A stretch of DNA of 54,761 nucleotides from an uncultured Gammaproteobacteria bacterium (GTDB lineage Bacteria; Patescibacteriota; Patescibacteriia; 2-01-FULL-39-33): assembly GCA_964361645.1 (NCBI GenBank), contig CAYIBK010000004.1, positions 1 to 54,761 on the forward strand. Direction: 5' to 3'. Position 1 is the first letter of the stretch, and each line of letters begins with the position of its first letter. Shown one piece after another: positions 700 through 52,657 of this stretch. A program made the position numbers and the translations under genes. Below the pieces are notes generated by a model. That model saw only the letters and a list, made by a program, of their open reading frames with translations. It did no database searches and had not been told where the DNA came from.

Positions 700-870
700 A
701 AAGAAATTAAACCTATATTTCAAACTCCACAAGCTTGCGCTCCCCGCCTGCCATCGCCTATTGCCCTCAAGAGCCTGCCTGCCGGTAGGCAGGGAATTGA
801 ACCTCTATTTCAGGCTCCCCGCCCGACGCGCCTACGGCGACAGCCGTGGCGGGCGGGCGCAAATTCTATA
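700..870 (-). pseudogene. decayed tRNA-Arg-derived fragments: T-arm/acceptor piece, linker, then 3' half with anticodon loop TTGTGGA
   Basis: Minus strand reads GAGGTTCAATTCC[20-bp palindrome]CTCTTGAGGGCA, then the linker TAGGCGATGGCAGGCGGG, then GAGCGCAAGCTTGTGGAGTTTGAAATATAGGTTTAATTTC. This parallels the intact locus at 876-1058 but has substitutions and lacks the 5' halves. Confidence 0.5.
774..793. repeat. B-type 20-bp palindrome (cctgcctgccggtaggcagg) inserted in the T-stem of a tRNA-Arg fragment
   Basis: Compare the filled site ctcaagag|cctgcctgccggtaggcagg|gaattgaacc with the empty site ttaagag|gaattgaacc at 951-970. Confidence 0.8.
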
Positions 871-875
871 TTAAT

Positions 876-1058
876 CGTGACTAGCAGGAGTTGAACCTGC
901 GATCTTCAGCTCCGCAAGCTGACGCTCCCCGCCTGCCATCGCCATTGCCCTTAAGAGGAATTGAACCTCTATTTCAAGCTCCGCAAGCTTGCGCTCTATC
1001 CGTTGAGCTATAAGGGCAGGGGCCAGGGCGGGCAGGTATCCAGCTGAGCTATAGCCAC
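876..1058 (-). tRNA. interrupted tRNA-Arg(GCG)-like gene: 22-nt 5' part (1037-1058) and 52-nt 3' part (876-927) split in the D-loop by a 109-nt insert
   Basis: Joined sequence: GTGGCTA TA GCTC AGCTGGATA | GAGC G TCAGC TTGCGGA GCTGA AGATC GCAGG TTCAACT CCTGC TAGTCAC G. It gives a full cloverleaf, with an acceptor stem of 7 bp including one G-U, and a canonical T-loop. Insert flanks pair with each other (CCTGCC/GGCAGG and CGCC/GGCG). Confidence 0.5.
946..1017 (-). tRNA. tRNA-Arg (anticodon GCG), nested inside the insert of the outer tRNA-like gene
   Basis: GCCCTTA TA GCTC AACGGATA GAGC G CAAGC TTGCGGA GCTTG AAATA GAGG(A)TTCAATTCCTCT TAAGGGC A. Clean 72-nt cloverleaf, no encoded CCA. Confidence 0.8.
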
Positions 1059-12575: not shown

Positions 12576-12616
12576 GGTTGGGAAATTAATTGAAAATATT
12601 TTTTATTATTTAAGAT

Positions 12617-13165
12617 GGGATTGCTTCACTAATTTGTCATTGCGAGCTTGTCTACCGTAGGTAGGCGAAACGAAGTGGAGCGAAGCAATCTCATTTCTAA
12701 TTCCGTGGGATTGCTTCGCAAGCTCGCAATGACTGCTGTAAATCATGGGATTGCGGAGCCTGTCCCGAGTTTACGAGGGATCTCCTCGCAATGACAACTG
12801 TAAACCGTGGGATTGCTTCGTGCCTCGCAATGACGATGAAGTAAATCGCCATAATGACCTTTGTCATTGCGAGCCTACCTGCCGGCAGGCAGGGGAGCGG
12901 AGCGGGTCCTCGCGAAGGCGGGGAAGCAATCTCGTTTCTAATTCCGTGGGATTGCTTCACTGCGTTCGCAATGACGGTGTGTTTGTCATTGCGAGGGAGC
13001 GGAGCGGACGAAGCAATCTCGTGGTGTGTATCAAATGTGATTGCTTCGTTCCTCGCAATGACAACTGTAAACCGTGGGATTGCTTCGCAAGCTCGCAATG
13101 ACTGCTGTAAATCATGGGATTGCGGAGCCTGTCCCGAGTTTACGAGGGATCTCCTCGCAATGACA
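12617..13165. repeat. array of A-type palindromic elements (three full hairpin units plus half units), with a 90-nt internal direct duplication and one B-type palindrome at 12874-12893
   Basis: Full units lie at 12636-12732, 12863-12975 and 12985-13061. The block gggattgcttcgcaagctcgcaatgactgctgtaaatcatgggattgcggagcctgtcccgagtttacgagggatctcctcgcaatgac occurs at about 12707-12794 and again at about 13075-13164. Confidence 0.9.
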
Positions 13166-13193
13166 GTGGAAATAATTGCAATGACCTATGACC

Positions 13194-23387: not shown

Positions 23388-23397
23388 GTCTCAAATT

Positions 23398-23497
23398 GTC
23401 ATTGCGAGTAGATCCCTCGGAAACTCGGGACAGGCTCCGCAATCTCGTGTTCGTTTCAAATGGGATTGCTTCTCCGCCCTGGGCGGATCGCAATGAC
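23398..23497. repeat. A-type palindromic element
   Basis: gtcattgcgagtagatccctcggaaactcgggacaggctccgcaatc ... gggattgcttctccgccctgggcggatcgcaatgac. Confidence 0.9.
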
Positions 23498-23499
23498 AG

Positions 23500-24346: not shown

Positions 24347-24751
24347 TTACTTTCCCCTCCTTTTCAAGGAGGGGTTGGGGTGGTTGACCGAAGTTTCTCT
24401 ATAAATCACCTCTAATACGCCATCTAGATTATCCCTAATCTCATTATTAGTAAACCTAATTACTTTTATTCCCTTATTTTCTATATATTTTTGCCTAGCA
24501 CTATCATATTGTTCTGATTTTTCATCAAAAAAATGATCAGCCCCATCAACTTCAATAACTAATTTAAGCTCTGGACAAAAGAAATCCACTATATAATTTC
24601 CTATGCCGTGTTGTCGCCTGAATTTTCTATTATTAATCTGACGATTTTTCAATTTAGACCAAAGGATTATTTCATAGAAAGTTAGTTTATTCCTTAAATC
24701 CCTTCTTGTTTGTTTTTGATTATATCTATTAAAAATTTTAGTCATTAACAA
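24347..24751 (-). CDS. DUF559 endonuclease-domain protein (Vsr-like fold)
   Basis: LWSKLKNRQINNRKFRRQHGIGNYIVDFFCPELKLVIEVDGADHF is the DUF559 signature. The last roughly 12 codons are encoded by a C-type repeat. Confidence 0.8.
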   Translation of the reverse strand: MLMTKIFNRYNQKQTRRDLRNKLTFYEIILWSKLKNRQINNRKFRRQHGIGNYIVDFFCPELKLVIEVDGADHFFDEKSEQYDSARQKYIENKGIKVIRFTNNEIRDNLDGVLEVIYRETSVNHPNPSLKRRGK

Positions 24752-25085
24752 CCCCTCCCCACCTCCCCTTGAAAAGGGGAGGATTTTATTTTATTTATTA
24801 CCCCTCCTTGAAAGGAGGATTTTATTTTATTTATTACCCCTCCCTGAAAAGGAGAATATTTTATTTATCAGCCATCTCGCAAAAGAAAAAAGAGGATATT
24901 TTATTTATCAGCCATACAGCAAAATAAGTGGATTTTATTTTATTTATTATTAATTTACCGTAAAATAATTTTAATACTATCCATTCCCCCTCCTTTTTTA
25001 ATGCTATCTACTTCCCCTCCTTTTCAAGCCTGCCTGCCATGCCTACGGCAGACAAGCCGGTAGGCAGGGAGGGGTTGGGGTGGTT
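24749..25085. repeat. tandem array of about five degenerate 35-45-bp hairpin-plus-T-run units, ending in a C-type hairpin that carries a 40-bp expanded B-type palindrome (25029-25068)
   Basis: The units are cccctccccacctccccttgaaaaggggaggattttattttatttatta, cccctccttgaaaggaggattttattttatttatta, cccctccctgaaaaggagaatattttatttatcag, and two more. The terminal unit equals 24352-24385 interrupted by the palindrome. Confidence 0.8.
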
Positions 25086-35004: not shown

Positions 35005-35016
35005 ATATATTTAAGC

Positions 35017-35260
35017 GTCATTGCGAGGGAGCAAAGCGAACGAAGTAATCCCAATTCCTCTAATATGAGATTGTCGCGTCGCCCTCAAGCTCACCGCAAT
35101 AACGGTGTGTTTGTCATTAGCGAGCCTGCCTGCCGGCAGGCAGGGAACGAAGCAATCTGACACGAAGCGTCATCCCGACCCCGCACTTGATGCGGGGAAA
35201 GGGATCCCTTGGTTTTATTACTATGGGATTGCTTCTCCGCCCTGGGCGGATCGCAATGAC
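35017..35260. repeat. composite A-type elements with nested B-type palindrome (35124-35143) and a nested gtcatcccgac-type sub-element
   Basis: gtcattgcgaggg..., then gtcattagcgag|cctgcctgccggcaggcagg|gaacgaagcaatc ... gggattgcttctccgccctgggcggatcgcaatgac. Confidence 0.85.
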
Positions 35261-35286
35261 GATTATTTGCATGATAATTAAACAAT

Positions 35287-35336: not shown

Positions 35337-36080
35337 TTAAGCCAGAGCCAGAGCCGGTGGTGCCGTCTGGGCCTGCTGCCAATCTTGCAAATAACTGGGC
35401 TGGGTGCTATCAGACCAGAAACGGTTCATCAGCTCGCCCACCACCGAGAAAACGAATCGCTTGGCGCGCTGTGCCGCTTCTTTCGTCTCGCCCTCAGCAG
35501 GCTGGATACCATAGGCAAAGCAGACTGCTTGCCACTGACCACCGACACCCGAAAAAATCTTGGCTTCGCCGTCCTTTACGGGGCCGGCCACATCGTTGTT
35601 GAAACGCTGAACACGGTAGAACACCCTGCGTCCTCGATGGGACAACAGAATGTCAACCTGCGAGTAGCGCGTTCCATACCCGCGACCGAGGTGAACCGTG
35701 GCCAGGTAACAGAGCACGCCATCCACGCGTTCGGAAACGGCATTGGACTTCTCTGGAAATTCGGGAGTGGCCGGAATCTTGCGTTTGACGCTGTAACTGC
35801 CATCTTGATCAGCAATACCCGCCACCGCCGATTCGACCACAGAAACCACTTGCTCGAAAAACGATTGCTCGTCCAATTCTGGCGCTACAATGTAGCAATA
35901 ATGTTCGTCATCATAGAAAAAGATATTAACGCCATCAATAGTTTCAAGCGCATCAAGCGCCGAATCAACGCAGTCGCCACTTACGACAATTTGATGACTA
36001 CCGGCATAATATTGATCAGTAAAATTGTCTTCATTAAGAGTAAAATCTCGACCAACACGTTCCAATTCCTTCAACGACAT
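35337..36080 (-). CDS. GC-rich orphan protein 1 (247 aa, no recognisable family)
   Basis: GGAGG lies 7 nt before the ATG, with its own promoter and terminator. The protein-like acidic composition contrasts with the Arg-rich junk of the antisense 35331-36110 ORF. Confidence 0.65.
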   Translation of the reverse strand: MSLKELERVGRDFTLNEDNFTDQYYAGSHQIVVSGDCVDSALDALETIDGVNIFFYDDEHYCYIVAPELDEQSFFEQVVSVVESAVAGIADQDGSYSVKRKIPATPEFPEKSNAVSERVDGVLCYLATVHLGRGYGTRYSQVDILLSHRGRRVFYRVQRFNNDVAGPVKDGEAKIFSGVGGQWQAVCFAYGIQPAEGETKEAAQRAKRFVFSVVGELMNRFWSDSTQPSYLQDWQQAQTAPPALALA

Positions 36081-36382: not shown

Positions 36383-36627
36383 AGCCACTTTTGCAAAAGT
36401 GGCGCAAACCTGCCTGCCGGTAGGCAGGACTACGAGCATATAAAAACTTAGGCACTCTAAATATATGGTCATTGCGAGCGAAATGAAATGAAGCGAAGCA
36501 ATCTGATGCGAAGCATCATTCCGAGCAAGGCGAGAGATCTCTTGGTTTTATTACTACGAGATTGCTTCACTGCGTTCGCAATGACGATTGAATTGCTTTG
36601 CGCTTAATCTAAATTTTTCAATTGTCG
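36383..36627. repeat. D-type composite element copy 1: gccacttttgcaaaagtggc hairpin + B palindrome (36409-36428) + left arm + A-type hairpin (36468-36585) + right arm
   Basis: The arms cgagcatataaaaactta... and cgcttaatctaaatttttcaattgtcg are inverted relative to each other. Confidence 0.8.
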
Positions 36628-36656
36628 CCTATTTATTAATATATTTATAAATAAAT

Positions 36657-36838
36657 CTGCCTACCGGCAGGCAGGACTACGAGAGATGAAAAATTTATCA
36701 CCACAAATATATTGTCATTGCGAGCGAAACAAAGTGAAGCGAAGCAATCTCATTTGATATAAACATGGGATTGCTTCACTGCGTTCGCAATGACGATTGA
36801 ATTACTTTCCGCTTAATCTAAATTTTTCATATGCTCGA
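36657..36838. repeat. D-type composite element copy 2: B palindrome (36657-36675) + arm + A-type hairpin (36714-36794) + arm
   Basis: actacgagagatgaaaaattta ... gtcattgcgagcgaaac...cgcaatgac ... ccgcttaatctaaatttttcatatgctcga. Confidence 0.85.
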
Positions 36839-37074
36839 TTTATTTTTTATTTATCAATAAAATTTAATTAACTAACTGCTTGCCTTAAAAAATATTGTGC
36901 TAATTTTATACAACAGTGAGCGTTAAAAGCCAACTCAGGAGCGAAGGGACATTTGTTGGCTTAGCGAACTGTGATAAAATTAGCCATGATTTTTTATAGC
37001 AAGCGACTTTTCTTTTTGTTAGCTTTTTCTTTTCTTAGAAAAGAAAAAGTAAAGTAAACACAAAAAAATACTAT

Positions 37075-37150
37075 GTCGTTGCGAGGAACGAAGCAATCTC
37101 ATTTCTGATTCGATGGGATTGCTTCATTCGCTTCGCTCCTTCGCAATGAC
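37075..37150. repeat. A-type element, near-identical direct copy of 43864-43939
   Basis: About 85 nt including flanks (tactatgtcgttgcgaggaacgaagcaatctcatttctgattcgatgggattgcttcattcgcttcgctccttcgcaatgacaca) differ at 3 positions from the 43.86-kb copy. Confidence 0.9.
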
Positions 37151-37201
37151 ACAAAAAAACAGCATGGAAAATGCTGAATAAAAAGTTCCTATAAATAATT
37201 C

Positions 37202-37264: not shown

Positions 37265-38110
37265 CTACACGGTCGCGACTTCCGCCTTCTTGGCCTTCTT
37301 GGCCTTCTTGACGGGCGCCGAGTCCGCGGGCGCTTCTTCCGCCTGGAGCTGGATCTTCAGGGCTTCGAGGCCCGGGAAGGTTTCTCCAATGGTGGACGTC
37401 AACGGAGCAACCGACACGCGATGAACCGATGCCCTCAGACCCTGGCGACGGAGCTGGTTCTGCGCCAAATCGATCAGCGGACGAACCATGGCGTACAGGA
37501 AGCGTTCGTTGATGTTCAACTCTTGCGCCGCCTTTTCGCCGCCTTCGACTACCTTCGTGATCGGCTTTTCGACTTCCGATTTGGACTCGGCGTCGAAAGA
37601 CTTCTTCACGAAGGGGCGGTATACTAGCTGGCCAAGCTCGTTGGGGTACTGGCCGAAGAGCGTCGCGTAATACATGGTCTTGTCACCATCCGCGACCACC
37701 TTCACTAGCCAGAAGCTCGGGCGTACGAACTTGTACTTGTACCGGCCATCCTGCTGTTCCGATTGCGTTCGAAACGGCAAGCCGTTGGCCGAACACACAA
37801 CCCGGAACGCCGATCCCGATGCGTCAAGTATGGGTTCGGTCTGCATTTCGCTCACCGGAACGGAGAGCGCCAAGCAGTAACGAAGCTTTGATTTCTCGAG
37901 GACCGCCTGGAAATCGGTCAAGCCGTCGAGTGCTTCGTCATCAACCGCTGCGAACGTCGCAAAGCGGTTTCCTTCGAAAGTCTTGAGTTCGCCGGGGGCG
38001 TCAATCGCCGCCAACAACTCTTCTGCCTTCGAGACATCTTCGTTCATCACGGCGATGCCTGCGAGAGCGTTGTTGCGGATTTCTTGTGCGTTGCCTGATT
38101 GGGTCTTCAT
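37265..38110 (-). CDS. GC-rich orphan protein 2 (281 aa) with Lys/Ala-rich C-terminal tail
   Basis: GGGAGA lies before the ATG. The tail APADSAPVKKAKKAKKAEVATV resembles histone-H1-like nucleic-acid-binding tails. No family recognised. Confidence 0.7.
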   Translation of the reverse strand: MKTQSGNAQEIRNNALAGIAVMNEDVSKAEELLAAIDAPGELKTFEGNRFATFAAVDDEALDGLTDFQAVLEKSKLRYCLALSVPVSEMQTEPILDASGSAFRVVCSANGLPFRTQSEQQDGRYKYKFVRPSFWLVKVVADGDKTMYYATLFGQYPNELGQLVYRPFVKKSFDAESKSEVEKPITKVVEGGEKAAQELNINERFLYAMVRPLIDLAQNQLRRQGLRASVHRVSVAPLTSTIGETFPGLEALKIQLQAEEAPADSAPVKKAKKAKKAEVATV

Positions 38111-38439: not shown

Positions 38440-38556
38440 CCCCCTCTAACTCCCCCTTGGAAAGGGGGAGAACATTTCCCCCCTCCTGCCAGAGCCTGCC
38501 TGACATGCCTACGGCAGACAAGCCGGTAGGCAGGGAGGGGGTGGGGGTGGTGGGAG
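38440..38556. repeat. C-type repeat carrying the 40-bp expanded B palindrome (38495-38534)
   Basis: cccctctaactcccccttggaaaggggga ... cctgcctgacatgcctacggcagacaagccggtaggcagg gagggggtgggggtggtgggag. The 40-mer differs at 1 nt from 25029-25068. Confidence 0.85.
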
Positions 38557-38599
38557 TATTCTTCCTTTTGTCATCTCCGACCTGATCGGGGGACACACC

Positions 38600-38681
38600 G
38601 TCATTGCGAGGAGTCCTCGTGAAGACGGGGAAGCAATCTTATTTGAGATAAACATGGGATTGCTTCGTGCCTCGCAATGAC
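38600..38681. repeat. A-type element (left half identical to 52546-52595)
   Basis: gtcattgcgaggagtcctcgtgaagacggggaagcaatcttatttga... Confidence 0.9.
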
Positions 38682-38824
38682 AAACACATCATAGTATTTA
38701 GTGGATAAAATAATAGCTAAATTTTGTAGATGATTGTATAATATGATTAAGATACATTAAAAAGATAAATTTTTATCTAGACATCTCTCCTAGATGCCAA
38801 TTTAAATAATCATATTATTAAATT

Positions 38825-40986: not shown

Positions 40987-41162
40987 CTTGGTTCTTTTGA
41001 TTTTGAATGGTAGAATGTTGAAATATGAAATATGATAAGATTTTCCCTTGGAAGAGTTCTTGTGGGGAGATAGTTTTTGGCAGGATGGATATTTCATTGA
41101 GACAATCGGCAGAATAGATGAGAGAAAGATGAGAGAATATATTCAAAATCAAAAGAACCAAG
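40987..41162. repeat. perfect 22-bp inverted repeat pair (40987-41008 and 41141-41162) around the transposase remnant
   Basis: cttggttcttttgattttgaat and attcaaaatcaaaagaaccaag. A GC-rich hairpin, ccacggcttttaggccgtgg, lies at about 40915-40935. Confidence 0.85.
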
Positions 41163-41191
41163 AGCCTGATTCGTCAAGCTCCGGCCTTTAG
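41039..41191 (+). pseudogene. C-terminal remnant of an IS200/IS605-type Y1 transposase (TnpA) or RAYT
   Basis: Translates to DFPLEEFLWGDSFWQDGYFIETIGRIDERKMREYIQNQKNQE, which matches by eye the conserved C-terminus (FP.L....W...FW..GYF..T.G.......YI.NQ). It is preceded by in-frame stops, so only about 45 codons survive. Confidence 0.55.
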
Positions 41192-43247: not shown

Positions 43248-43316
43248 GCCTACCTACTAGCAGGTAGGGAATTTTACTTGCTCGCCTGTTTTATTAATAC
43301 AATTTATAAAAAACAA

Positions 43317-43498
43317 CTCGAGTATATGAAAATTTGGATTAAACGGAAAGTAATTTAATTGTCATTGCGAGGAGATCTCTCGTAAACTCGGGACAGGCTC
43401 CGCAATCCCATGTTTATATCAAATGAGATTGCTTCGCTTCATTTCATTCCGCTCGCAATGACAATATATTTAGAACGCTAAATTTTTCATATGCTCGA
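43317..43498. repeat. D-type composite element copy 3 (arms + A-type hairpin 43361-43462)
   Basis: ctcgagtatatgaaaatttggattaaacggaaagtaatt ... gtcattgcgaggagatctctcgtaaactcgggacaggctccgcaatccc ... gaacgctaaatttttcatatgctcga. A B-like palindrome lies at 43249-43268. Confidence 0.85.
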
Positions 43499-43705: not shown

Positions 43706-43725
43706 CCTGCCTGCCGGCAGGCAGG
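43706..43725. repeat. B-type perfect palindrome
   Basis: cctgcctgccggcaggcagg. Confidence 0.9.
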
Positions 43726-43863
43726 TTTTGGAAAAACCTTTTGCGGTCAAAAGGTTTTAAAAGATTATTTAAAGATACAAAATTAACAATAAATACTTTT
43801 TTTAAAAAAAGGTGGCGAAAGAATATTTAACAATACAAAAGTAACAAGAATAAAAATTACTAT

Positions 43864-43939
43864 GTCATTGCGAGGCACGAAGCAATCTCATTTCTGATTC
43901 TATGGGATTGCTTCATTCGCTTCGCTCCTTCGCAATGAC
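43864..43939. repeat. A-type element, near-identical direct copy of 37075-37150
   Basis: Same 85-nt block with 3 mismatches, same orientation. Confidence 0.9.
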
Positions 43940-43950
43940 ACATAAAAATA

Positions 43951-45956: not shown

Positions 45957-46122
45957 CTCGAGCATATGAAAAATTTAGATTAAGCGGAAAGTAAAATGAG
46001 TTACAAAACTTTTACTGTCTGATCCGCCCTGGGCGGAGAGTTTAAAAGTTTTGTTAGAATTTTACTTGGAGCGCTAAATTTTTCATCGCTCGTAGTTTTG
46101 CGCCACTTTTACTAAAAGTGGC
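45957..46122. repeat. D-type composite element copy 4 (arms and gccacttttactaaaagtggc hairpin, central A-type hairpin replaced by a short tccgccctgggcgga core)
   Basis: ctcgagcatatgaaaaatttagattaagcggaaagtaaaat ... gagcgctaaatttttcatcgctcgtag ... gcgccacttttactaaaagtggc. Confidence 0.8.
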
Positions 46123-48554: not shown

Positions 48555-48574
48555 CCTGCCTGCCGGCAGGCAGG
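48555..48574. repeat. B-type perfect palindrome
   Basis: cctgcctgccggcaggcagg. Confidence 0.9.
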
Positions 48575-49203: not shown

Positions 49204-49818
49204 TTAAAGTACGTCATTATTTAACCTGCTTTGGCGCTGATAATAGGTCATCAGTGCCAGAATTAAAATAACAAAAACAATTGTTCTTACAGAATAGATT
49301 ACAGCTAAAACATTCCCACCTTGTATTGATGGATAGAGGGCTAATATCCCAGCTGATAAACCGCATACCCACGCCACATATGATTCTACATTGCGTTTTT
49401 CTTGATGTAGACTAAGGATTGTTGGAATATAACCAAGACCGATGAGCATTTGGGTGAAAATATTACTCCTCCAAGCATCTTGAGAAATTATTCCAAAAAG
49501 GACAATAGCCGATACTCCACCCAAATACCATTTCTCAAATGATCTAAAAACTATTTTCCTGCCCCCGTAATAAACCAGGGCTAATAAAATAATAACGGTT
49601 GCCAGAAAATCCATAGTGTTTAAAATGCCAGAACGCCAATCCCCTTCTTCAGCCAAAAGATAAGTTAATAGGCTTAATCCAGTGCCTATTACAAAAGTTA
49701 TCCAAGTGGAAAGGGTCGGCACCACGCCACTCTTTTTACTTTGTTTAATCTGATGTGTATAGCATACAACAAAAATTATCACTACCATACCAACAAGAGC
49801 TACAAATATATCTTTCAC
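49204..49818 (-). CDS. polytopic membrane protein, unknown function
   Basis: 204 aa, six or so hydrophobic helices. Confidence 0.6.
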   Translation of the reverse strand: MKDIFVALVGMVVIIFVVCYTHQIKQSKKSGVVPTLSTWITFVIGTGLSLLTYLLAEEGDWRSGILNTMDFLATVIILLALVYYGGRKIVFRSFEKWYLGGVSAIVLFGIISQDAWRSNIFTQMLIGLGYIPTILSLHQEKRNVESYVAWVCGLSAGILALYPSIQGGNVLAVIYSVRTIVFVILILALMTYYQRQSRLNNDVL

Positions 49819-49925
49819 TTTTGAATTCCTTCTTGGTTTGAATTGCCAATGAACAACTTACCATTATATCACTGGGTTAGGTTTTTGTCAAGTTACATTT
49901 TTTATTAATAATATACAAATAATAA

Positions 49926-50141
49926 CCCGAGCATATGAAAAATTTAGATTAAGCGTTATTGCGAGGAGATCCCTCGTAAACTCGGGACAGGCTCCGCAAT
50001 TCCATGTTTATATTAAATGAGATTGCTTCTCCGCCCTGGGCGGATCGCAATGACAATATATTTAGAGTGTTAAATTTTTCATCGCTCGTAGTCCTGTCTG
50101 CCGGCAGGCAGGTTTGCGCCACTTTTGGTAGCAAAAGTGGC
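49926..50141. repeat. D-type composite element copy 5: arm + A-type hairpin (49953-50053) + arm + B palindrome (50092-50111) + gccacttttggtagcaaaagtggc hairpin abutting the elp3 stop
   Basis: ccgagcatatgaaaaatttagattaagcg ... gagtgttaaatttttcatcgctcgtag tcctgtctgccggcaggcagg tttgcgccacttttggtagcaaaagtggc. Confidence 0.85.
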
Positions 50142-51760
50142 TAGATTATCTTAGTCATATAAGTGCCTTCTAATTTATAGCCAAATTTTTCGTAATACTT
50201 GCGCACTCCCACGCCGGCAATAATCGCCATTTTATTTAAGCCTTCTTTTTGACAAATCTCCTCGGCTTTTTTAAGAAGCCTAGTCCCCAATCCGCCGTGT
50301 TGGACATTACCCTTTTTACCTATCTCCGTTAATTTGCCATAAGTATGAAGTTCTCTTATTAAACCTGCACCCACTAATTCCGGTATAAAGCTCCCACCCC
50401 CTCTACCACCTTGAGTGGCTTCTCCCCCTCGGACAGGGAGAGAAATTTTATTATTTATTCTTAGACGCAAAAAAGCATAAAGCACTTTTTCATCATAAGA
50501 CTCATAACTCAAAAAGTATTCCCAGCCTTCACTAGCCCTGTATGATCTAACTTTTAAAATTAAATCATCAATGCTTTGTGGTATGGGATGATGACGTCCA
50601 ACCTCACGACATCTAATACAACGACAAGACCAACCTTCTTTTTTTGACTCATCATCCAATAGTTGGCGTAAATTAGTGATACTATTGCCAGCTAAAATAC
50701 TTTCTTCTGGAATGTCTCTAATTAATCTGGTAATACGCACATATTCTGGCGTAATTTTTTTGATATTAATTAATAGTTTATGAAGTTGCTTTTCACTATA
50801 CGGCTTATATTTGCCACTCTTCCACCAATTATAAAGTTCCGCATGCTCATTTACCACGCAAGGATAAATCTTGATCATATCCGGCATCCAGTCTTGGTGG
50901 GTATAAACTTTTTTAAACATCGCCAAATCTTTAGCCGGAGTAGAGCCTGGCAAATCAGGCATAAAATGTAAATTTATTTTAAAGCCAGCCTCCTTTAATA
51001 ATCTTATGGCTTTAATGCTTCTCTCTACTGTGTGCCCTCTTTTGTTTAAGGCCAGTATTTTATTATCAATATGTTGAATACCAAGTTCTACCCGAGTACA
51101 ACCGAATTTTCTCATCCTGATTATTTCTTTGGCATTAATAAAGTCTGGACGAGTTTCTAAAGTTAAACCAATACAGCGATGTTTGGCGGTTTCGTTTATT
51201 TTTTGAGCTTGCTCCAAGTTTTTAGATTTTCTGCCATTTAAAGCTTCAAAACATCTTTTGATATACCAATCTTGATATTGCTTTGGAAGAGCAGACCAAG
51301 TACCGCCGATAATTATCAATTCTACTTTATCAGTTTTATGACCATTAGCTTTGAGTGCGCGAAGTCTCATCTTGATTTGCCTATGAGGATCAAAATCATT
51401 TAAGATAGCGCGCATCACCGCCGGCTCATTGGATAAATAACTCTTGGGCATTCTAACTTCAGTGGGACAAAAAACGCATTTGCCAGGGCAGGGATAGGCC
51501 TTGGTTAAAACGGTAATTATCGCCACCCCAGACATAGTACGCACTGCTCTTTTGGTTAATAATTTTTCCAATTCTGGGCTGGATTTTATTTTTTTACTTT
51601 TAATTAAAATATGATAAGCTGAGAGTAGCTTTGATTTTTCTGGTGGAGGAAAGCCGAACTTGCCTGATTCATTTCTAATTACAAACATCAGCTCTTTGTA
51701 GGAAGAAGGCTTTGATTTAACTAATGATTTGATTATTTTTTGTAATTGTATTTTGGTCAT
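50141..51760 (-). CDS. elp3: Elp3-family radical-SAM/GNAT enzyme (tRNA wobble-uridine cm5U-type modification)
   Basis: SGVAIITVLTKAYPCPGKCVFCP...SYLSNEPAVMRA...KVELIIIGGTWSAL radical-SAM core, and a C-terminal GNAT (HGGLGTRLLKKAEEI...GVGVRKYYEKFGY). 539 aa. Confidence 0.85.
   Translation of the reverse strand: MTKIQLQKIIKSLVKSKPSSYKELMFVIRNESGKFGFPPPEKSKLLSAYHILIKSKKIKSSPELEKLLTKRAVRTMSGVAIITVLTKAYPCPGKCVFCPTEVRMPKSYLSNEPAVMRAILNDFDPHRQIKMRLRALKANGHKTDKVELIIIGGTWSALPKQYQDWYIKRCFEALNGRKSKNLEQAQKINETAKHRCIGLTLETRPDFINAKEIIRMRKFGCTRVELGIQHIDNKILALNKRGHTVERSIKAIRLLKEAGFKINLHFMPDLPGSTPAKDLAMFKKVYTHQDWMPDMIKIYPCVVNEHAELYNWWKSGKYKPYSEKQLHKLLINIKKITPEYVRITRLIRDIPEESILAGNSITNLRQLLDDESKKEGWSCRCIRCREVGRHHPIPQSIDDLILKVRSYRASEGWEYFLSYESYDEKVLYAFLRLRINNKISLPVRGGEATQGGRGGGSFIPELVGAGLIRELHTYGKLTEIGKKGNVQHGGLGTRLLKKAEEICQKEGLNKMAIIAGVGVRKYYEKFGYKLEGTYMTKII
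50389..50444. repeat. C-type-like GC-rich repeat inserted in-frame in elp3
   Basis: ctcccaccccctctaccaccttgagtggcttctccccctcggacagggagag encodes LPVRGGEATQGGRGGGS just before the conserved IRELHTYG. Boundaries are approximate. Confidence 0.6.
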
Positions 51761-52480: not shown

Positions 52481-52545
52481 TTACTGAGTAAGTTTAATTT
52501 TTATCAAAAAAATGTTAAAATTAAATTATGAAATATCTTCTTTTT

Positions 52546-52639
52546 GTCATTGCGAGGAGTCCTCGTGAAGACGGGGAAGCAATCTTATTTGATACAAAAA
52601 TGAGATTGCTTCACTCCACTTCGTTTCGTTCGCAATGAC
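52546..52639. repeat. A-type element directly upstream of the phosphohexomutase gene
   Basis: gtcattgcgaggagtcctcgtgaagacggggaagcaatcttatttgatac...gagattgcttcactccacttcgtttcgttcgcaatgac. Confidence 0.9.
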
Positions 52640-52657
52640 ATAAGAGAATAATTCTCA

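Follow-up and report, generated by a model that had tools for sequence, protein, structure and literature searches.

Elements of the IS200/IS605 family (IS608, ISDra2) transpose precisely and without target duplication by a hairpin-dependent, single-strand mechanism; they carry two subterminal imperfect hairpins and guide sequences, use a fixed target of 4-5 nt and show a lagging-strand bias. To our knowledge, this mode is the only well-understood way to move DNA too short for duplex circularisation. The element analysed here is of that size: it is a 20-bp perfect palindrome, CCTGCCTGCCGGCAGGCAGG (hereafter P), found repeatedly in a stretch of 54,761 nt of contig CAYIBK010000004.1 (the window, meaning throughout the whole stretch of DNA analysed), from the ~38% G+C (35-38%) genome of a groundwater bacterium. 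At 20 bp, P is several-fold below the known sizes of miniature inverted-repeat transposable elements (MITEs), which DDE transposases mobilise; an original prediction made from the window sequence alone also called such a unit far smaller than MITEs. The small dispersed repeats (SDRs) of Nostocaceae, credited to Elhai et al. 2008, are said to be units of ~20-30 bp that form precise, nested insertions and for which no transposase was identified. SDRs are reported in Nostocaceae only (PMC5861425). The GC clusters of yeast and other mitochondria (GC42 and its relatives) are imperfect palindromes of 18-48 bp with AG/ACT direct repeats resembling target duplications (PMC4478555). Repetitive extragenic palindromes (REPs) bear an unpaired GTAG or CGTC tetranucleotide tag at one end (PMC3733652), and REP doublets forming hairpins (REPINs) co-evolve with REP-associated tyrosine transposases (RAYTs) in lineage-specific families (PMC3116915, PMC3733652). 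We favour, with a probability of roughly 0.6, the reading that P is a non-autonomous, structure-targeting 20-bp hairpin parasite moved in trans.

P shares with the REP/REPIN-RAYT systems (Nunvar 2010; Bertels & Rainey 2011, PMC3116915; Di Nocera 2013, PMC3733652) the form of 20-40 bp GC-rich extragenic palindromes present in many non-coding copies, a presumed mobilisation in trans, insertion into or next to one another and the absence of a classical target duplication. REPs are imperfect palindromes, arranged mostly as inverted doublets beside a single-copy RAYT gene, whereas P is perfect, untagged, present as singlets, identical across phyla and unlinked to the RAYT family tested. Among five features of REP membership, P shows only that of a short GC-rich multi-copy extragenic palindrome and lacks the other four. 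With SDRs it has in common very small units, precise insertion and nesting (P inside P, palindromes in the centre of P, and 40-bp forms, termed P40, in which one P is split by a second unit); its occurrence across phyla, on phage contigs and in tRNA arms sets it apart by description. Mitochondrial GC clusters (PMC4478555), sponge hairpin elements (PMC2800124) and P are all GC-rich hairpins in AT-rich intergenic DNA, and GC clusters further resemble P in presence/absence polymorphism, the merging or nesting of units, horizontal transfer and an AG-type target. GC clusters are organellar, whereas P is bacterial and phage-borne and comes without duplication: its empty sites contain a single ..AG/G.. 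(a slash marks the point of insertion) and its filled sites no repeated AG beyond the terminal CAGG of P. As for IS200/IS605 elements, filled and empty sites differ by the exact length of the unit, 20 bp, with no duplication; unlike them, P has a loose RG/G preference in place of a fixed tetra- or pentanucleotide target, and is one perfect hairpin with an 8-bp stem whose foot coincides with the boundaries. Like a MITE, P can be viewed as a pair of 10-bp terminal inverted repeats that abut directly, and a 109-bp insert described below, like P40, resembles such ends with cargo; P differs in having no fixed-length duplication, and neither a shared transposase nor a parent insertion sequence with such ends was found. 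What is new in P is that a perfect hairpin of 20 bp, with nothing added, recurs unchanged in different phyla and in phage contigs and appears to target structure.

Copies of P were searched in the window with up to two mismatches, in comparison with shuffled sequences, and with a second pattern tolerating transitions. Nine copies were recovered with at most two mismatches, against 0.00 in shuffles, and the transition-tolerant pattern retrieved 10 full-length copies against 0.28 expected. With the two P40 and one copy carrying a 1-nt deletion, the window holds 13 P, the number of copies or variants originally proposed, for which a few coordinates were off by 1. Several of them lie in larger repeats: A-type modules with outer arms gtcattgcgag...ctcgcaatgac, C-type hairpins (cccctcc...ggagggg) and E-type repeats, which end in a gccactttt..aaaagtggc hairpin. 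The copies are:

774-793: P (C13T) in the T arm of a tRNA-Arg 3' fragment, aagag/P/gaattgaacc
2209-2228: P (C2T, C13T) interrupting the T arm of a 3' piece of tRNA-Ser, ggagg/P/gattt, followed by a second insertion of ~95 bp
12647-12665: old P of 19 nt, decayed by one deletion and five GC-to-AT transitions; it occupies the gtcattgcgag/ site in a hairpin module of A type
12874-12893: P (G4A) at the gtcattgcgag/ site of another A-type module
25029-25068: P40, a P interrupted at its centre (CC/GG) by a decayed P-like unit of 20 bp; it is located where loop meets stem in a C-type hairpin
35125-35144: perfect P at the gtcattagcgag/ site of an A-type module
36409-36428: P (C13T) in an E-type repeat, the reverse complement reading ctcgtagt/P/tttgcgccactttt
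36656-36675: P (C1T, G8A) in a further E-type repeat
38495-38534: second P40, in a C-type hairpin, 90% identical to the unit at 25014-25080
43249-43268: decayed P with 5 substitutions, all GC-to-AT transitions
43706-43725: perfect P, ggcgag/P/ttttgg, a context found at no other window site
48555-48574: perfect P, 88 nt past the stop of the NUDIX gene, gtcgag/P/gggatctc
50093-50112: P (C5T) in an E-type repeat, ctcgtagt/P/tttgcgcc; also present in the independent assembly L168 (L numbers designate the individual DNA stretches compared with the window)

P is perfect at three of these sites and the other full-length copies differ by transitions alone, all 13 of their 13 substitutions being GC-to-AT and leading away from the perfect palindrome. 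Such changes are the pattern expected if copies of various ages decayed from one GC-rich source. Single-stranded P forms a hairpin (8-bp stem, CCGG loop) of -8 kcal/mol. All 13 copies lie outside long open reading frames (ORFs), in at least 8 different flank contexts within 55 kb, and often just past gene ends, as at 48555 and 50093. They are singlets, the closest two (36409 and 36656, 247 bp apart) lying in a direct duplication of a larger repeat. The description of P40 as a palindrome within a palindrome was confirmed with one qualification: the inner 20 bp are not palindromic and resemble a decayed, shortened P-like unit, GCCTACGGCAGACAAG, comparable with the reverse complement of 12647-12665. 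The 90% identity of the two P40 units indicates that P40 multiplied along with its host module.

The evidence for insertion comes from the comparison of filled sites with the following uninterrupted sequences of the window:

948-967: empty site for the copy at 774, in the intact tRNA-Arg(GCG); junction 957/958
2393-2414: empty site for the copy at 2209, in tRNA-Ser(GCT); junction 2404/2405
24354-24383: empty C-type hairpin; junction 24368/24369
37075-37098: empty A-type arm; junction 37085/37086; a second empty copy lies at 43864-43887 (junction 43874/43875)
46084-46110: empty E-type site, catcgctcgtagt/tttgcgccactttt; junction 46096/46097

The four filled/empty pairs of the original prediction were all verified. 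In the tRNA-Arg pair, the arms aagag and gaattgaacc flanking P are contiguous at 957/958. For tRNA-Ser (ggagg/P/gatt) the right-hand match is just 4-5 nt because the second insertion follows. The C-type pair opposes ttcaag/P40/gaggggttggggtgg at 25029, with the same context at 38495, to its empty hairpin, and the A-type pair opposes gcgag/P/gaacgaagcaatc at 35125 to both empty arms. We found additional pairs. The E-type context ctcgtagt/P/tttgcgccactttt (50093, and reverse-complemented at 36409 and 36656) faces an empty site with the junction GT/TT; no base can be shifted across this boundary, so that the unit is exactly 20 bp and the target duplication nil. The decayed copy at 12647 occupies the gtcattgcgag/ site, as does P at 12874 and 35125, with an empty counterpart at 36724/36725. 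The copy at 48555 sits at the ..cgag/gg.. position of a further module, the canonical form of which reads ..tacgag/ggatctc at 12777/12778.

An orthologous pair was also obtained. The region 5' of a conserved Chitinophagaceae RAYT gene is alignable in ten genomes, and the 20 bp, as a T13 variant, are present in one of them only (L047, gtcccatagg/P/gacgaaacatataaaa); the corresponding site is empty in L190 (gtcccgtagg/gacgacacatataaaa) and in 8 further related genomes. Moreover, the T arms of tRNA-Arg and tRNA-Ser being ancestrally uninterrupted, the events at the tRNA sites were insertions and not deletions from which the empty copies arose. The window junctions are AG/GA four times, GG/GA once, AG/GG twice, AG/TT once and GT/TT three times (two of them as AA/AC), to which two decayed copies are added. 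Most window P lie after RG and before G, and this RG/G preference is real; the G/G microhomology leaves a 1-nt boundary ambiguity in most window pairs, none of which shows a target duplication. The precise, duplication-free insertion previously claimed is thus borne out by the exact 20 bp at the unshiftable GT/TT site and by the L047 pair. The paralogous pairs, the orthologous pair and the tRNA insertions of known ancestral state support the conclusion, drawn from sequence comparison, that P is a discrete, precisely bounded insertion module without target-site duplication. New copies comprise exactly CCTG...CAGG and bring no target duplication; they decay by GC-to-AT transitions and also multiply passively with their host modules. 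Two other accounts of the boundaries were considered by hand and rejected, a serine-recombinase (IS607-like) crossover at GG and a 1-bp duplication: the left junction is G/CC and the GT/TT site requires a full 20-bp insert.

To follow P beyond the window, we scanned one genome per GTDB species for exact P with Y allowed at position 13, and the viral contigs of IMG/VR with it. The genome scan gave at least 120 stretches with exact P and the viral one 47, for a chance expectation of ~1 match in 596 Gb of uniform base composition (2 x 4^-20 per position, by our calculation); 97 of the 120 listed stretches have less than 50% G+C, where the expectation is still lower. According to the record titles, the 120 listed stretches comprise ~42 Bacteroidota, 29 Patescibacteria, 9 Planctomycetota/PVC (Planctomycetes-Verrucomicrobia-Chlamydiae), 8 Omnitrophota, 8 "Gammaproteobacteria" metagenome-assembled genomes (MAGs), 8 delta-proteobacterial/Desulfobacterota-type MAGs, 3 Bdellovibrionales (Bdellovibrionota), 3-4 Nitrospirota, 2 Chloroflexi, 2 Ignavibacteria, 1 Stahlbacteria and a few unclassified records; none of these 120 is cyanobacterial. 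The Bacteroidota include, among the matches listed, seven cultured isolates: Winogradskyella echinorum (KCTC 22026), Olivibacter oleidegradans (CCM 7765), Flagellimonas yonaguniensis, Longitalea luteola, Flavivirga sp., Thermobacterium salinum and Flavobacteriaceae bacterium R38. Phage contigs carry up to 6 exact P in one 29.5-kb contig (L147, L156, L158). Some matches in high-GC viral contigs fall in coding sequence and may be a different matter. The flanks of P are unrelated across 212 non-redundant sites, which excludes a shared contaminant or a conserved locus. An assembly or adaptor artefact was likewise rejected, as the copies mutate, recur in independent assemblies, are present in isolates and have 212 different flanks. 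Neither the 20-mer nor the module sequences were found in the searchable literature, where keywords led to no systems other than the analogues compared above.

The T13 variant, the only one that the scan pattern allowed, or its mirror A8, recurs in independent window copies (774, 2209, 36409, 25059, 38525) and in numerous genomes from several phyla. Either the loop-closing base pair is a mutational hot spot or the variant is a second master sequence. At the end of one viral contig (L165, 3916-4142, IMG/VR) we also noticed a tandem array of at least 11 copies of the 21-bp unit CCATGCCTACCGGCAGGCAGG, a P variant plus one base, which is open in two reading frames and would read as a 7-aa repeat.

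The flanks were tabulated first on 144 sites, then on the 212 non-redundant sites drawn from the listed genome and viral stretches. The rule that P always lies between AG and GA did not survive: AG/GA occurs at 4 of the 13 window copies and at 6 of the 144 sites, and AG, expected at the end of the flank in 24 of the 212 cases, was observed in 33, being barely enriched. The real signal is G/G (C/C on the other strand), present at 69 of 212 junctions (33%) against our own estimate of ~10% expected. T just before P is depleted (30 observed, 114 expected), and CGAG and GAGG 5' of P occur 8 times each for 1.6 expected. A/T accounts for 33 of the 212 junctions, and A/C junctions occur besides GT/TT and A/T; no tetranucleotide next to P is conserved over the 212 sites. 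Stop-free spans of at least 200 codons contain 33% of the P sites, against 73% of random positions.

Structure is the other feature of the targets. Counting perfect hairpins with a stem of at least 6 bp, and taking as controls positions 65-150 bp away, 13.4% of the P sites were in or beside the loop of a hairpin against 7.7% of the controls (p = 0.013), and 20 of these 27 hairpin-associated sites were within 1 nt of the stem-loop junction. Wherever the empty site is a well-defined hairpin, P lies 0-2 nt from that junction. This geometry was found in the window tRNA T arms, the C-type hairpin and the top of the A-type stem, in tRNA D arms (L021 and L052 at GA/GC, L162 at A/GAGC, L006 at GGCG/GAAT), in the small hairpin gtccc-gta-gg/gac 5' of the RAYT gene (L047 versus L190) and in a lineage-specific hairpin of a high-GC viral contig (L147, L158). 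P is also found inside P (L020, L026, L059, L065, L109); 20 viral stretches show the exact halves of P separated by 1-30 bp, and palindromes are nested in its centre in L202, L206/L213, L217 and L223. Such inserts make the centre of P, its CCGG tip, itself a landing site. When hairpin modules target hairpin tips and junctions again and again, nested palindromes result, which explains the intergenic architecture of the window.

tRNA genes or fragments hold 8 of the 212 sites for a tRNA coverage of 0.25%, a ~15-fold enrichment (p = 9e-8) that is approximate because the baseline counts no fragments; L006 provides a ninth case. The P-bearing pieces are mostly partial duplicates beside an intact gene (window, L044, L006, L052), which fits a destructive insertion surviving in redundant copies only. 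The pattern of an intact tRNA next to a P-bearing partial duplicate recurs in other phyla (L044, L006, L052, L021); a brute-force trial at rebuilding the outer tRNA of L021 did not discriminate, as ARAGORN accepted many chimeras. In a phage tRNA-Met (L151, 2239-2330), P stands in the variable loop (gagg/P/tcgcc) and ARAGORN returns a 92-nt tRNA with a long extra arm, so P may be tolerated there. The same insertion, with the T arm missing, was seen around 8616 of the related contig L123.

A further insert of the window concerns both P and tRNA:

928-1036 (minus strand): insert of 109 bp, bounded by imperfect inverted repeats of 16 bp that consist of P-like halves (CCTGCCCGCCCTGGCC ... GGCGATGGCAGGCGGG)

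It splits the D arm (GGATA/GAGC) of a tRNA-Arg(GCG) gene at 877-1058 (minus strand) and holds a complete, different tRNA-Arg(GCG) (1018-945). Removing 928-1036 restores a perfect tRNA-Arg(GCG) cloverleaf (5' half 1058-1037, 3' half 927-877). The GGATA/GAGC position is the D-arm position of P in the phage tRNA fragment L162, and the right end of this insert type also abuts GAGC of a decayed tRNA-Arg copy at ~743-764. The insert thus looks like P-type ends with a cargo replacing the gene destroyed. Rfam thresholds are reached by four tRNAs only in the window. Chains of partial tRNA-Arg and tRNA-Ser copies lie next to the intact genes (690-875, 1900-2600), and in each copy the D or T arm is interrupted by a GC-rich palindrome that differs from one copy to the next, for instance cccgcccg..cgggcggg at 818-857, or tccgcccaaggcgga+cccgcctcgggcggg at 2534-2566 after a 14-nt 5' piece of tRNA-Ser.

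P is one of several small, GC-rich hairpin modules, a suite by which the intergenic regions of this Buchananbacteria-like (Patescibacteria) genome have been invaded. The intergenic stretches with P are built almost wholly of small palindromic modules nested in one another: beside the A-, C- and E-type repeats, there are an inner-arm module gaagcaatc...gattgcttc and the modules tccgccctgggcgga and cctgtcccgagtttacgagggatc. Mosaics of this kind were observed at 12576-13193, 23388-23499, 35005-35270, 36440-36800, 37063-37159, 38590-38690, 43352-43460, 43852-43948, 49950-50060 and 52540-52640. Members of the suite also accompany P elsewhere: an A-type module in a PVC MAG of 61% G+C (L070), a gtcatcctgag.. 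module in a Doudnabacteria genome (L085) and a gammaproteobacterial MAG (L045), and a C-type module in L017, L076, L097 and L145/L146. The whole suite, and not P alone, therefore seems common to distant phyla.

Candidatus Buchananbacteria are relatives of the window organism, whose NUDIX protein is 76-84% identical to theirs. In relatives (L191, L193, L194), 41 bp separate the radical-SAM and NUDIX genes, against ~985 bp in the window (49204-50140), a gap filled with modules, P and a 204-aa orphan ORF without family, which the inserted DNA may have brought in or given rise to. In the 12-kb syntenic loci of the relatives (NUDIX 76-78% identical), the counts of P, A-type outer arms and TCCGCC modules are all 0, whereas the window has 9, 32 and 9 of them, respectively; the whole suite is thus a lineage-specific invasion. 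Two independent assemblies of the same Hainich groundwater population, L168 and L169, are 99.97-99.99% identical to the window, and the P at 48555 is present in both. Between the window (50361-50453) and L168 (2337-2384), assemblies 99.97% identical, the radical-SAM gene differs by a patch of 45 bp (15 codons), the window version having a C-type-like hairpin (ctcccaccccctc...ctccccctcggacagggagag) in the coding sequence. The patch represents strain-level polymorphism in another module.

How would P move? An enzyme acting in trans would recognise the folded P hairpin and cut at its foot, probably with a single-stranded DNA intermediate. A 20-bp duplex being unable to circularise, a single-stranded hairpin is the most plausible intermediate, and a single-strand transposase of HUH/Y1 type (IS200/RAYT-like) would be the most obvious candidate, a leading but unsupported one, since it is the only well-understood machinery of this kind and nothing here ties one to P. 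Insertion would kill its target, so that copies persist only in intergenic DNA and redundant tRNA fragments. P would spread horizontally, phage DNA being a plausible vehicle. Its absence from close relatives and its patchy distribution over phyla argue for a dispensable, horizontally transferred trans-acting factor, and its exact boundaries in unrelated contexts, one of them without microhomology, argue for an enzyme-defined unit and not for template switching.

Several observations weigh against a parasite moved in trans. Part of the copy number is hitch-hiking in larger repeats. No obvious perfect hairpin is present at 86% of the P sites. Flush direct repeats of 7-14 bp, of varying length, stand on both sides of P at 6 of 210 sites (L122, L124, L130, L143, L105, L066); they apparently reflect either placement in short tandem repeats, at the borders of repeat units, or a target duplication or other mode of insertion, and these sites are mostly in heptamer-like short tandem repeat arrays by genes, in high-GC viral or planctomycete contigs. 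No presence/absence polymorphism was detected in the L168 and L169 overlaps, where all copies are present; these assemblies are essentially the window's own strain and are uninformative on this point. The window G/G sites are all on the + strand (five scored, and two P40 by reading); outside the window no strand bias was found, with 19 versus 19 sites relative to the gene-strand majority and GC skew. Clustering of the ORFs of 168 stretches yielded as common families only phage structural and housekeeping proteins, with no conserved gene neighbourhood around P. The original prediction had called the unit autonomous, which does not fit 20 bp that encode nothing and have no linked protein family in these stretches. 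Two orphan ORFs of the window, at 35337-36080 and 37265-38110 (both minus strand), were considered as candidate enzymes: their G+C content is 52-53% in a 35-38% G+C genome, and P brackets them (35125/36409 and 36656/38495), but neither gave a Pfam, NCBIfam or PADLOC match. The structure model of the former is poor (pLDDT 52), and the latter has 9 relatives among 1.8 billion representatives. Both lie within an island at 33.8-43.2 kb, together with a DNA methylase, other orphan ORFs and a transposase remnant:

41039-41191 (plus strand): C-terminal remnant of an IS200-like Y1 transposase, Pfam PF01797, E = 8.4e-8, profile positions 88-121 of 121

This remnant, correctly reported by the original prediction, is a dead fragment of 50 aa with no adjacent P, and used as a query it retrieved two short proteins only. 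It could be the dead copy of a RAYT that cut and pasted P as a REP of the lineage, a reading which would account for a dense, short, GC-rich extragenic hairpin without duplication and for the GTAGT that precedes three window copies, but which we find unlikely. GTAGT stands 5' of the three E-type copies only and is already in the empty site 46096/46097, and no GTAG or CGTC tag beside P is conserved over the 144 or the 212 sites. Y1_Tnp genes are present in 3 of the 120 listed stretches (L047, L073, L010), and P is adjacent in L047 only, 25 bp upstream of the start codon. The RAYT family of L047 was traced across 4,777 homologues, and 29 loci were fetched for five close ones; P was absent from the 18 loci scanned directly with 4 mismatches allowed and from the nine related upstream regions aligned, which adds to the points against an enzyme of this family acting on P and makes the single adjacency incidental. 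Judging from the alignment, P in L047 inserted secondarily into a small hairpin that was already there and that is empty in nine related genomes. P also forms singlets and not inverted doublets, and is a perfect palindrome; the spread of one 20-mer over many phyla and phage contigs is not what a REP confined to a lineage and co-evolving with its RAYT would show. The sequences examined do not support REP/RAYT as the mechanism of P.

P could also arise without any enzyme of its own, by template switching in replication or repair, a nascent strand stalled at a hairpin passing onto a P hairpin elsewhere through 1-2 nt of G microhomology and then returning, or as filler repairing a hairpin tip cut by a structure-specific nuclease. 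Targets at stem-loop junctions and palindrome centres, the G/G microhomology with its 1-nt ambiguity in most window pairs, the failure to find a linked protein and the even strand split outside the window would all agree with this, but exact boundaries in diverse contexts and the GT/TT site without microhomology would not; copies with donor flanks or with partial P were not noticed, and the scheme explains neither the P-free close relatives nor why one 20-mer, and not any stable hairpin, is found across phyla. We hold it to be improbable. If P were instead a mere passenger, spreading with larger repeats and by gene conversion between paralogues, the pairs would be products of conversion or of a precise loss of the palindrome. 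Both P40 and the copies in E-type repeats (36409, 36656, 50093) did multiply with their host modules, as did those of L145/L146, and the in-window pairs are all paralogous by construction. Against this stand the ancestrally P-free tRNA arms, which give the events the polarity of insertions, the five host contexts and the unique 43706 site in the window with 212 unrelated flanks elsewhere, and the L047 insertion in single-copy orthologous DNA; as sole explanation the passenger reading is largely refuted, and we give it very little credence. Least probable of all, in our view, is that selection maintains P for a function, be it the binding of a protein, transcription termination or RNA stability through its hairpin, or a signal related to defence or uptake. 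Its extragenic position, often just past gene ends, its stable hairpin and a sequence strictly kept across phyla are what such a site would show, but P disrupts tRNA arms and hairpins, its copies decay freely, it is missing at orthologous positions in relatives, most copies have no T-run 3' of them, and no conserved gene neighbourhood was found.

More tentatively, the parasite reading can be extended. P and its companions (gtcattgcgag.., gaagcaatc.., tccgccc..gggcgga, cccctcc..) might possibly be pan-bacterial, ultra-small hairpin parasites carried from phylum to phylum on phage or plasmid DNA, entering hairpin tips and stem-loop junctions by an undescribed mechanism, with ends able to bracket cargo, as in 928-1036. 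Insertion could then be the work of a single-strand integrase of a new, structure-specific kind, or of host functions in replication or repair that the parasites have hijacked, and the 928-1036 unit would both destroy one tRNA-Arg gene and deliver a replacement tRNA-Arg.

If truly mobile, P would be among the smallest mobile DNA units known, its 20 bp being two hairpin halves, and the first such unit seen identical across many bacterial phyla and phage contigs. It raises the question of which activity recognises a bare hairpin with an 8-bp stem and pastes it without duplication at stem-loop junctions, a question that cultured carriers (Winogradskyella, Olivibacter, Flagellimonas, Longitalea, Flavivirga) make experimentally open. 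An enzyme inserting a defined hairpin at structured DNA would interest tool developers. For the organisms themselves, the modules swell the intergenic DNA of otherwise streamlined Patescibacteria and break tRNA genes; in metagenome-assembled genomes they also give rise to small ORFs that are spurious and to breaks in the assembly, and their presence or absence could serve as fine-scale lineage markers.

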